A DNA stretch of 64,000 nt, from assembly GCA_964504535.1 (NCBI GenBank), contig CAZDED010000008.1:12673-76672 (forward strand), given 5' to 3'. Source of the DNA: an uncultured Gammaproteobacteria bacterium (GTDB taxonomy: Bacteria > Patescibacteriota > Microgenomatia > Levybacterales > GWA1-39-11). The notes under the pieces are model-generated. The model saw only the letters and a program-made list of their open reading frames with translations, was not told the DNA's origin and did not search any database. The translations under genes and the position numbers were made by a program. Positions 53,335 to 54,137 of the stretch are shown here, one piece after another (position 1 is the first letter of the stretch; each line of letters starts with the position of its first letter).

Positions 53335-54137
53335 GTGTAGACTCATTCCACCCCGCGGGTGGAAATAGGCTACACCTCGTACCTATTCGCAAATAAGGCT
53401 TTTTATTAAATGCAGCTCGCGCGCATAAGAAACGTGATCTTCTACAAATTTTTCGTAAGATTTGTCTCTTAAGAACATAGAATTAATAAGTTCGGTCGAA
53501 ACCATCGAATTAGGCTGTGGAGTAATATATTCGGTATATGAAGTCCATCTATATGATTTAAGCTTTGTGAGCTCGATTATGCTTGAAACAACCGGATTTA
53601 AATGAATATATCTAGAGACGTGAATTAGCTGTTCATCATTCTCTATAAAGACTGCCTTAAACCTCCCCTGGAAAATATGCCCATTTCGTTTATGCTTGGT
53701 GTTGTAATATTTTGCGTAGGCGTTGGAAAAATTTGAAATAAATTTTGCAATTCCATTTTCTTTTTCCTGCTGCAACAAGAAATGAAAATGATTTGGCATA
53801 ATTGCAAAGGCCAAAATTTTAATGGTTTGCTCTTGTTTCTTAATTTTTTCGAGAACATCAGATTGGAGCGCCGGAGAGAGTTGAAGCAAATGCGAAAGTC
53901 TCATAGGAAGTTCTTCAAATCTATAGAAATGTGACAACATTAATGCCCGCTCCCGTTCTGTATTGGTCGCAAAAATCTGTTTACCCTCAACTGCTCGATT
54001 AAAAATATGGTAAATATATCCGTTTTGAAATACAATTTTCCGTGGATTTGACATATATTAAGCATAGCAAAACACTTTCCTGCATGTGTAGACTCATTCC
54101 ACCCCGCGGGTGGAAATAGGCTACACCTCGTACCTAT
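53335..54137. mobile_element. IS200/IS605-like (RAYT-type) element: HUH Y1 transposase gene bracketed by identical 52-bp hairpin-containing direct repeats
   Basis: gtgtagactcattccaccccgcgggtggaaataggctacacctcgtacctat at 53335-53386 and 54086-54137. The inner ccaccc-cgc-gggtgg hairpin and outer gtgtag/ctacac stem are present in both copies. Confidence 0.7.
53383..54054 (-). CDS. HUH-family Y1 transposase (IS200/IS605 TnpA / REP-associated tyrosine transposase-like)
   Basis: HuH motif MPNHFHFLL; catalytic Tyr region RYIHLNPV; 223 aa (a longer RAYT-like form). Confidence 0.7.
   Translation of the reverse strand: MSNPRKIVFQNGYIYHIFNRAVEGKQIFATNTERERALMLSHFYRFEELPMRLSHLLQLSPALQSDVLEKIKKQEQTIKILAFAIMPNHFHFLLQQEKENGIAKFISNFSNAYAKYYNTKHKRNGHIFQGRFKAVFIENDEQLIHVSRYIHLNPVVSSIIELTKLKSYRWTSYTEYITPQPNSMVSTELINSMFLRDKSYEKFVEDHVSYARELHLIKSLICE

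Follow-up and report, generated by a model that had tools for sequence, protein, structure and literature searches.

What kind of unit is formed by a gene for an HUH/Y1 enzyme that sits between two identical, hairpin-forming repeats? The question is raised by positions 53335-54137 of a 64-kb stretch of contig CAZDED010000008.1 (assembly GCA_964504535.1, GTDB lineage Levybacterales within the Microgenomatia), which we refer to as the window. Here, a gene encoding a 223-aa Y1 protein lies between obg and a DUF192 gene. From the sequence alone, the locus had been predicted to hold either a REP-associated tyrosine transposase (RAYT) with its cognate pair of repetitive extragenic palindromic (REP) sequences, or a recently active or duplicated element. 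Comparison with related loci leads us to regard it as probably a REPtron/TIRtron-like unit, in which the gene for a class-2 TnpA-Y1 (RAYT-like) HUH nuclease-ligase is placed between two copies of a cognate, low-copy palindrome.

Identical palindromic repeats flank the Y1 gene

The 52-bp repeat GTGTAGACTCATTCCACCCCGCGGGTGGAAATAGGCTACACCTCGTACCTAT occurs in two same-strand copies, at 53335-53386 and 54086-54137, with 0 mismatches; the two identical direct repeats predicted around the Y1 gene are thus present. It is the longest repeat within the 64-kb window, and none of 100 shuffles of the window yielded a match. Each copy consists of a 41-nt imperfect palindrome followed by an 11-nt extension, CTCGTACCTAT (left copy, palindrome 53335-53375 and extension 53376-53386; right copy, palindrome 54086-54126 and extension 54127-54137). 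As the Y1 gene is encoded on the minus strand (53383-54054), the left copy lies downstream and the right copy upstream of it. The TAG stop codon (53383-53385) falls within the extension of the left repeat, and the hairpin core of the right repeat (CACCC...) begins 58 nt 5' of the ATG.

The palindrome is built from an outer stem (GTGTAG/CTACAC), a middle stem (CT/AG), an inner stem (TTCCACCC/GGGTGGAA) and a 3-nt loop (GCG). Folding of the repeat as single-stranded DNA (ssDNA) recovered the nested hairpin that had been proposed for each copy, at -14.8 kcal/mol (z = -3.6) for the plus strand and -13.1 kcal/mol (z = -2.3) for the minus strand. A covariance model (R1) scored the left repeat at 52 bits and the right repeat at 58 bits. 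Neither this model, run with its filters off, nor a mismatch search detected a third copy within the window, and no Rfam family matched the hairpin region.

The similarity of ~12 bp reported to continue beyond the repeats was also found. The 12-nt sequence TTTTTATTAAAT is located at 53400-53411, within the 3' end of the Y1 coding sequence (codons HLIKS, C-terminus), and again at 54140-54151, in the spacer between the DUF192 gene and the Y1 gene. The gap separating it from the repeat is 13 nt at the left copy versus 2 nt at the right. Given that TTTTTATTAAAT accompanies both repeats at these unequal distances, and that its left copy is coding, the upstream repeat looks like a duplicate of the 3' end of the Y1 gene plus palindrome from which 11 nt were deleted. 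Matching arrangements are present in independent assemblies of the source organism (3 contigs from 3 ENA samples), and the Y1 protein is also recorded in an NCBI assembly.

The flanking hairpin is conserved across Microgenomates homologues

We compared the window with ten loci, denoted by L numbers, whose Y1 homologues are 34-93% identical to the window protein (L034, L004, L033, L013, L007, L022, L025, L027, L029 and L030). A hairpin core of the form (C)CACC(C)-loop-(G)GGTG(G) was found on both sides of the gene in 10/10 of these other flanked Microgenomates homologues, which belong to Levy-, Davies-, Shapiro- and Roizmanbacteria. Upstream, the core starts 55-65 nt 5' of the ATG in 10 of the 11 loci, window included, and 30 nt in L013. 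Downstream, it starts 22-24 nt past the stop codon in 7 of the 11 loci, the remaining distances being 9 (L013), 38 (L022), 45 (L007) and 54 nt (L004). The loop reads CTCCA or CTCCG in the Levy-, Davies- and Shapirobacteria lineages, CG(T/A)CG in L029, L013 and L004, and GCG in the window. The full element is an imperfect palindrome of ~43 nt with the consensus AGGTGnnAAGCTAnn-CCACC-CTCCA-GGTGG-nnTAGCTTGACACC, to which the GTGTAG...CTACAC palindrome of the window aligns without gaps.

The two halves of the hairpin change together. Among nine full copies, double-sided changes were observed in 9 of 20 pairs, the observed covariation score was reached by none of 500 shuffles, and sliding the partner columns lowered the fraction of paired cells from 78% to < 50%. 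In L030, for example, CACC/GGTG is replaced by AACC/GGTT in all four segments, and in a copy lying apart from any Y1 gene (L020), a C-G pair of the middle helix has become T-A. Comparison of the window with the syntenic locus L004 showed that 39 of 41 hairpin positions are identical, while third codon positions agree at 38% and the proteins at 60.5%, and the surrounding spacer cannot be aligned. The hairpin has thus remained nearly identical while third codon positions and spacer diverged; its sequence, and not its structure alone, is therefore constrained.

A further line of evidence comes from L013 (Candidatus Roizmanbacteria MGAF01000001.1), where two divergent Y1 paralogues lie 5 kb apart in a single genome. 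The first is flanked by the hairpin ATTCCACCCGNCGGGTGGAAT. The second (6087-6743) is enclosed by a distinct hairpin, TTGACC..AGGTTA, which reads TTGACCTTTCAGGTTAA on the upstream side and TTGACCTCAAAGGTTAT on the downstream side. Each RAYT gene is linked to its own REP family (PMC6006769), and a palindrome of its own for each paralogue, as in a REPtron, is seen here in one genome. Because the palindromes are kept beside homologous genes, covary, and include a separate hairpin for a separate paralogue, sequence comparison suggests that they are most likely the cognate elements of the Y1 enzyme.

In most lineages, each flanking copy retains the gene-proximal arm only and the distal arm decays. 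Upstream of the gene, the hairpin is followed by TAGCTTGACACC, which contains an exact TTGACA; downstream, AGGTGnnAAGCTAnn precedes the hairpin. TAGCTTGACACC and GGTGCCAAGCTA, the gene-proximal arms, form an inverted repeat. Full palindromes are found in the solo copies and in the flanking copies of the window, L004 and L030. The exact TTGACA occurs in the upstream gene-proximal arm of L007, L022, L025, L027 and L029, and the window reads TCTACA at this position. A scan of the window region for terminators and promoters returned no terminator, and no promoter-like site at the palindromes upstream of the gene on the gene strand.

The Y1 protein resembles RAYTs

The Pfam family Y1_Tnp (PF01797) matches residues 69-151 of the Y1 protein at E = 1e-11. 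The HUH motif is formed by H89-F-H91, and the tyrosine Y149 lies in RYIHLNP, placing the protein in the HUH/Y1 superfamily. Its recognisable motifs are NHFH, IFQGRF (with the FQ pair), YIHLNP and W-(S/T)-S-Y, the last being W-T-S-Y in the window. The protein therefore carries the Y---NP motif and not Y---Q. In the classification of Quentin et al. 2018 (PMC6006769), Y---NP, whose Asn is the third metal ligand, defines TnpA-Y1 class 2 (RAYT-like). An alignment of 47 family members showed that Y149-I-H-L-N153-P154 is invariant in its class-2 positions, the full set of invariant residues being Y15, H16, N19, H89, H91, Q96, R148, Y149, H151, L152, N153 and P154. Invariance of the catalytic residues across all 47 members indicates that the catalytic apparatus of the family is under selection.

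The protein scores 58 bits with the NCBIfam model for RAYTs (REP_Tyr_transpos), which is under the model's cutoff of 80, and 17.9 bits with the IS200 equivalog model transpos_IS200 (NF033573), against a cutoff of 55. An AlphaFold (AF2) model based on the 47-member alignment reached a pLDDT of 89 and a pTM of 0.86. In a Foldseek search with this model, the best match in the PDB was 4ER8, E. coli TnpA-REP bound to its REP hairpin (E = 3e-8, target TM 0.66). The ISDra2 and IS608 transposases ranked after it at E ~1e-4, and 4ER8, 2XMA and 2VJV all had a probability of 1.00. Profile scores and modelled fold thus agree that the Y1 protein is RAYT-like and not a canonical IS200 TnpA, the side of this comparison that the original prediction had preferred.

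Searches for homologues revealed a large family. A word-indexed search returned 3816 homologues at E <= 1e-5, and an exhaustive search of 50%-identity representatives found 288 clusters at E <= 1e-30 and 8804 at E <= 1e-10. The homologues with named hosts come from Levy-, Davies- and Shapirobacteria and other Microgenomates/Patescibacteria, and are mostly ~50% identical to the query. The plasmid collection contained only distant Y1 homologues (<= 40% identity) and the phage collection gave one weak match; on these grounds we found no evidence for a plasmid- or phage-borne origin.

A second Y1 gene was not detected within the window by tblastn of the Y1 protein. One weak tblastn match, antisense to obg at 52899-53072 on the plus strand (31% identity over residues 81-138, E = 8e-4 within the window), is probably due to chance.

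Solo copies of the palindrome in related genomes

Palindrome copies also occur away from Y1 genes in related genomes. A solo full palindrome at L027:14105-14152 (55.6 bits) lies 3.4 kb from the Y1 gene, between convergent genes, and a second at L030:9694-9742 scored 42.9 bits. L013 contains a third hairpin at 878-902, with another on a separate contig (L015) of the same metagenome-assembled genome (MAG). The solo copy in L020 adjoins what appear by eye to be tRNA genes. No Y1 gene was found beside the solo copies by tblastn. Across ~200 kb of non-redundant sequence from relatives, their density is ~1 per 50-70 kb; the window adds none. A high-copy REP family was accordingly not seen, either in the 64-kb window, which holds no extra copies, or in the relatives at this density.

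Such a low density agrees with what has been described for one part of the RAYT family. The 16-mers flanking group 1 RAYTs occur ~12 times per replicon (Bertels et al. 2017, PMC5581495), and TIRYT genes are flanked by terminal inverted repeats (TIRs), some of them self-complementary, that belong to moderately abundant families (Di Nocera et al. 2013, PMC3733652). The proposal of a RAYT with a cognate REP pair therefore stands as regards the RAYT-like enzyme, the cognate palindromes and the solo copies in relatives; it needs revision in that the motifs are nearest to subclass 2.1/group 1/TIRYT and not to subclasses 2.2 and 2.5 with their high-copy REPs.

Broader scans yielded few further copies. 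A search with the inner hairpin TTTCCACCCGNNGGGTGGAAT of a genome collection that does not include the source genome gave 8 loci, mostly matching the generic inner stem only (Omnitrophota, Mycobacterium), in addition to the Roizmanbacteria loci L013 and L015. A metagenome scan with the structural pattern returned 3 contigs only, two with Y1 loci and one with a solo copy, and no viral contig scanned matched the hairpin pattern. In the Omnitrophota MAG JAMWDA01 (L014, L016, L018), three contigs together carry four copies of the inner hairpin TTTCCACCCG(G/C)CGGGTGGAAT, two of them in tandem at a spacing of 46 nt, and all without the outer arms. These may be members of an unrelated local REP family that has the same CCACCC/GGGTGG stem.

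History of the DUF192-obg site

The two neighbouring genes, obg on the left (52329-53291, minus strand) and the DUF192 gene on the right (54179-54490, plus strand), lie outside the unit and served as synteny anchors. The site between them is occupied in L034 (Obg 96% and Y1 93% identical to the window), in L004 (Obg 91%, Y1 60.5%) and in L033 (Obg 70%, Y1 59%). The recommended search of relatives for empty sites was successful in one case: in L037-L039 (Obg 93%), there is no Y1 gene, and the site consists of a 56-bp spacer without a palindrome, in which the covariance model found nothing at E <= 1. In other genera, the Y1 gene is located at unrelated loci. Occupancy of the same site across relatives, together with one empty site, indicates that the unit is long-lived at one chromosomal position, yet not fixed. 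The description of the element as "recently active or duplicated" does not agree with its presence at this site in species whose Obg proteins are 70-96% identical.

How, then, did the two 52-bp copies come to be identical? One variant lies directly 5' of the extension in gene sense and includes the final base of the stop codon; it reads ATAG followed by GTACGAG in both copies of the window, and ATAA in both copies of L034. Because this variant differs between the two genomes yet matches within each of them, the identity of the copies is probably a product of copy-to-copy homogenisation, by gene conversion or enzyme-mediated exchange, and not of recent insertion.

L033 has its downstream copy in inverted orientation with respect to the upstream one, and direct repeat orientation is therefore not a conserved property. 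This also weakens the earlier argument that same-orientation repeats set the element apart from classical IS200/IS605 ends, given that those ends are hairpinned on both sides as well and that the element is itself a near-perfect palindrome.

Nucleotide alignment of empty and occupied sites did not define the element boundaries, as the flank on the DUF192 side is too diverged. We considered excision by exchange between the two hairpins, with one left behind, and found that an empty site without any palindrome does not support it. The empty spacer of L037-L039 (3945-4000) contains TAGCTTATAGCTGTTAGCTAA, three TAGCT units that resemble the AAGCTA/TAGCTT palindrome arms. In a strain variant of the L034 species (L036:3076-3350), the called Y1 (185 aa) and DUF192 (91 aa) proteins are both truncated, and tblastn aligns all 223 residues; two Y1 members of 185 aa fall within the 90% cluster. 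The shortened Y1 could reflect start-codon variation or the onset of gene decay.

Relationship to known Y1 systems

Subclass 2.1 is characterised by NH[YF]H, FQ, Y[IV]HLNP, a serine (SS) tail, a length of ~238 aa and a C-terminal helix-turn-helix (HTH) (PMC6006769); it comprises group 1 RAYTs (PMC5581495) and most TIRYT proteins (PMC3733652). On its motifs (NHFH, IFQGRF, YIHLNP and W-(S/T)-S-Y, in 223 aa), the Y1 protein is nearest to this subclass. Like the TIRYT/TIRtron systems, it combines this motif set and a length of ~220-240 aa with low copy number and moderately abundant repeat families. The inverted or self-complementary repeats on either side of the gene recall those of TIRtrons, some published examples of which lie at similar distances from their coding sequence (PMC3733652). 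The flanking arm motif GGTG[TC]CAA resembles the TIRtron motif GGGGWSAS, with which GGTGTCAA agrees at 6/8 positions.

The differences are equally clear. None of the 47 members of the family from the candidate phyla radiation (CPR) has a detectable C-terminal HTH of the subclass 2.1 kind (Bac_DnaA_C, HTH_23, HTH_28). Every flanked locus examined here has a two-sided hairpin, unlike the situation reported by Quentin et al. for subclass 2.1, where REP-like structures were lacking. Unlike in TIRYT systems, the CPR hairpin core is conserved over several candidate phyla at ~50% protein identity. CPR/Microgenomates hosts are not listed for these groups in PMC3733652 or PMC6006769, and when the literature was searched for CPR terms together with RAYT/TIRYT, none of the 15 top-ranked of 516 papers with at least two of the six terms mentioned RAYTs or TIRYTs. 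The closest known systems are TIRtrons and subclass 2.1/group 1 RAYTs, from which the CPR clade stands apart by its lack of an HTH tail and its deeply conserved two-sided hairpin. The homologue on a Legionella adelaidensis plasmid (L032, NZ_LR134433.1), which is 26% identical, carries C-terminal Bac_DnaA_C, HTH_23 and HTH_28. At L032:1350-1385, ~125 nt 5' of the Legionella Y1 start, CACTCTGGAGGGTC is present twice in tandem and resembles the CPR hairpin core taken as its reverse complement (CACCTGGAGGGTG). Judged from this likeness, the two sequences may represent a recognition motif common to subclass 2.1.

The unit also shares traits with the E. coli TnpA-REP/REPtron (subclass 2.2), whose structure 4ER8 is the best structural match and which has the same metal-ligand Asn of Y---NP. 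Both comprise a single-copy, largely stationary gene with extragenic palindromes, cognate or probably so, further copies of which occur elsewhere in the genome, in the case of the present unit in the genomes of relatives. Unlike E. coli TnpA-REP, with which it is ~15% identical, the Y1 protein is accompanied by no visible high-copy REP family and no clear 5' GTAG guide outside the stem, and its palindromes are single and long, not REP pairs (BIMEs/REPINs) as in E. coli. At the foot of its hairpin, the window palindrome recalls the "double-foot" REPs of subclass 2.4 (PMC6006769): it starts with GT(GT)AG and has CTAC(AC) as its end, giving a 5' GT[AG]G matched by the reverse complement at the 3' end. 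The WQ and YIxNNP motifs of that subclass and its REP insertions inside the gene are absent.

With IS200/IS605 elements such as IS608 and ISDra2, the unit has in common the HUH/Y1 core fold, hairpins at both ends and, by analogy, presumably the chemistry of ssDNA cleavage and ligation. IS200/IS605 elements have subterminal hairpins at both ends, which are bound by TnpA (PMC6006769). Their class-1 traits, namely Y---Q, a length of ~150 aa, a match to the equivalog model, near-identical multiple copies and a frequent tnpB, were not seen in the window, and no fetched locus had a near-identical second copy.

Mechanism and alternative explanations

By analogy with TnpA-REP and IS608 TnpA (PMC6006769; PDB 4ER8, 2VJV), the Y1 protein would bind the palindrome folded as a hairpin in ssDNA, for example on the lagging-strand template. 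It would cut near the hairpin through a 5'-phosphotyrosine on Y149, with H89, H91 and N153 holding the metal ion, and then rejoin the strands. Cleavage and rejoining would maintain the palindromes and move them from time to time, the unit as a whole being moved less often. A TTGACA -35-like box for the gene may, in most relatives, also be provided by the gene-proximal arm of the upstream copy.

Several observations weigh against a REPtron/TIRtron-like unit of this kind. The 64-kb window contains no extra palindrome copies. The canonical 5' GT[AG]G guide is only loosely recognisable at the hairpin foot, where the window palindrome starts with GTGTAG and ends with CTACAC, resembling a double foot, and the family consensus reads AGGTG. 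No HTH family matched the C-terminus of any of the 47 members at E <= 1, and no REP-like sequences were found beside subclass 2.1 genes by Quentin et al. (PMC6006769). The hairpin-free empty site in L037-L039 does not fit a simple hairpin excision that leaves one copy. Finally, Y1 divergence is out of proportion to that of the host (60% identity at 91% for Obg), unlike simple vertical descent; it could result from allelic replacement at the same site or from a burst in evolutionary rate.

The last two observations are among those that an ordinary, autonomous insertion sequence (IS) of the IS200/IS605 type would explain, with the hairpins forming its subterminal structures, left and right, and the entire 0.8-kb unit transposing by peel-and-paste. 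An empty site without a palindrome is expected if both hairpins are part of the element, and a Y1 protein that has diverged far more than the neighbouring genes at that site could mean re-invasion. Further in favour of an IS, the unit is present or absent between close relatives and occupies different loci in different genera, and both flanking hairpins lie on one strand, as do the left- and right-end hairpins of IS608. We nevertheless consider an IS unlikely. The protein has the class-2 motif Y---NP in place of the IS200 motif Y---Q, scores 18 bits against the IS200 cutoff of 55 and, with N- and C-terminal additions, is 223 aa long versus ~150 aa for IS200 TnpA. There is one copy per fetched locus, the only second homologue being the divergent paralogue in L013, and a near-identical second copy was seen in no locus. 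There is no tnpB. Occupancy of the same site in a species with Obg only 70% identical, solo copies that are full palindromes and not IS ends, and the distant plasmid and essentially absent phage homologues all argue in the same direction. The palindromes might instead act chiefly as expression signals, with an upstream operator or promoter and a downstream hairpin that stabilises or terminates the RNA, kept alike by conversion and not used as enzyme substrates. The fixed distance to the ATG in 10 of the 11 loci and to the stop codon in 7, the exact TTGACA in the proximal upstream arm of the five loci named above, and the conservation of proximal arms alongside decaying distal arms are all consistent with such a role. 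However, full solo copies are located at kilobase distances from any Y1 gene, the hairpin is not followed by a T-run, and neither a terminator- nor a promoter-like site was found at the window copies on the gene strand, where the arm reads TCTACA and not TTGACA. The paralogue-specific, two-sided hairpin is what enzyme-substrate co-evolution predicts. On balance, expression signals as the chief function appear rather improbable, although the two roles are compatible with each other.

More trivially, the structure could have arisen in assembly, or a 751-bp segment could recently have been duplicated in tandem. The spacing of 751 bp between repeats that are perfect over 52 bp corresponds to ~1.07 tandem units, and the upstream copy holds a remnant of the 3' end of the gene. 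The identical structure in independent assemblies shows that it is not an assembly artefact, and homologous structures are present in four related species as well as in seven lineages at greater distance, so that we regard this explanation as next to negligible. A more far-reaching possibility, which we hold to be doubtful, is that the Microgenomates Y1 proteins form a separate, HTH-less class-2 branch with a hairpin (CCACC-CTCCA-GGTGG, with AAGCTA/TAGCTT arms) that is near-constant across several candidate phyla, and that the unit is a hairpin-homing, site-specific ssDNA element entering and leaving the chromosome through this hairpin. This is suggested by the flanks, which keep proximal arms only while solo copies are full, the circular permutation expected of a circle with one full palindrome that integrates at a hairpin. 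It is also suggested by the DUF192-obg site, which holds very divergent alleles and is empty in one close relative; the absence of a hairpin from that empty site argues against the simplest model of circle integration. Duplication of an integrase att site was rejected, as there is no integrase and the repeat is interpreted as the cognate palindrome of an HUH enzyme.

Elsewhere in the window, a direct repeat at 4908-4956 and 4984-5032, with its first 27 nt exact (AGCTTGTCGAAGTGTGCCTGAGGCGGG) and recurring 76 nt apart, overlaps the 3' end of a tRNA-Leu(taa) gene (4997-5078, minus strand). One possible origin is an integrated element that left behind an att-like, partial duplication of the tRNA.

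Implications

The function of RAYT-like Y1 nucleases is largely unknown (PMC6006769). For the largest group, subclass 2.1/group 1, no cognate DNA structure was found by Quentin et al. (PMC6006769), and flanking TIRs were described for many of its members by Di Nocera et al. (PMC3733652). A REPtron/TIRtron-like unit in Microgenomates extends a known kind of system to a new host group and reveals no new mechanism. What the large CPR clade provides is a clearly defined pair of protein and hairpin: the spacing is conserved, the stems covary, there are solo copies and a naturally empty site, and one paralogue has a hairpin of another type. This opens substrate recognition, and the question of whether the unit is mobile or domesticated, to direct tests with short oligonucleotides and with metagenomic reads in the public domain.

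Microgenomates genomes are assumed to be streamlined and to contain little mobile DNA. If the hairpin-homing interpretation were true, an HUH element of this type would have been kept over the long term in such genomes. In either case, CPR genomes, which are generally regarded as strongly reduced, retain a RAYT-like system.

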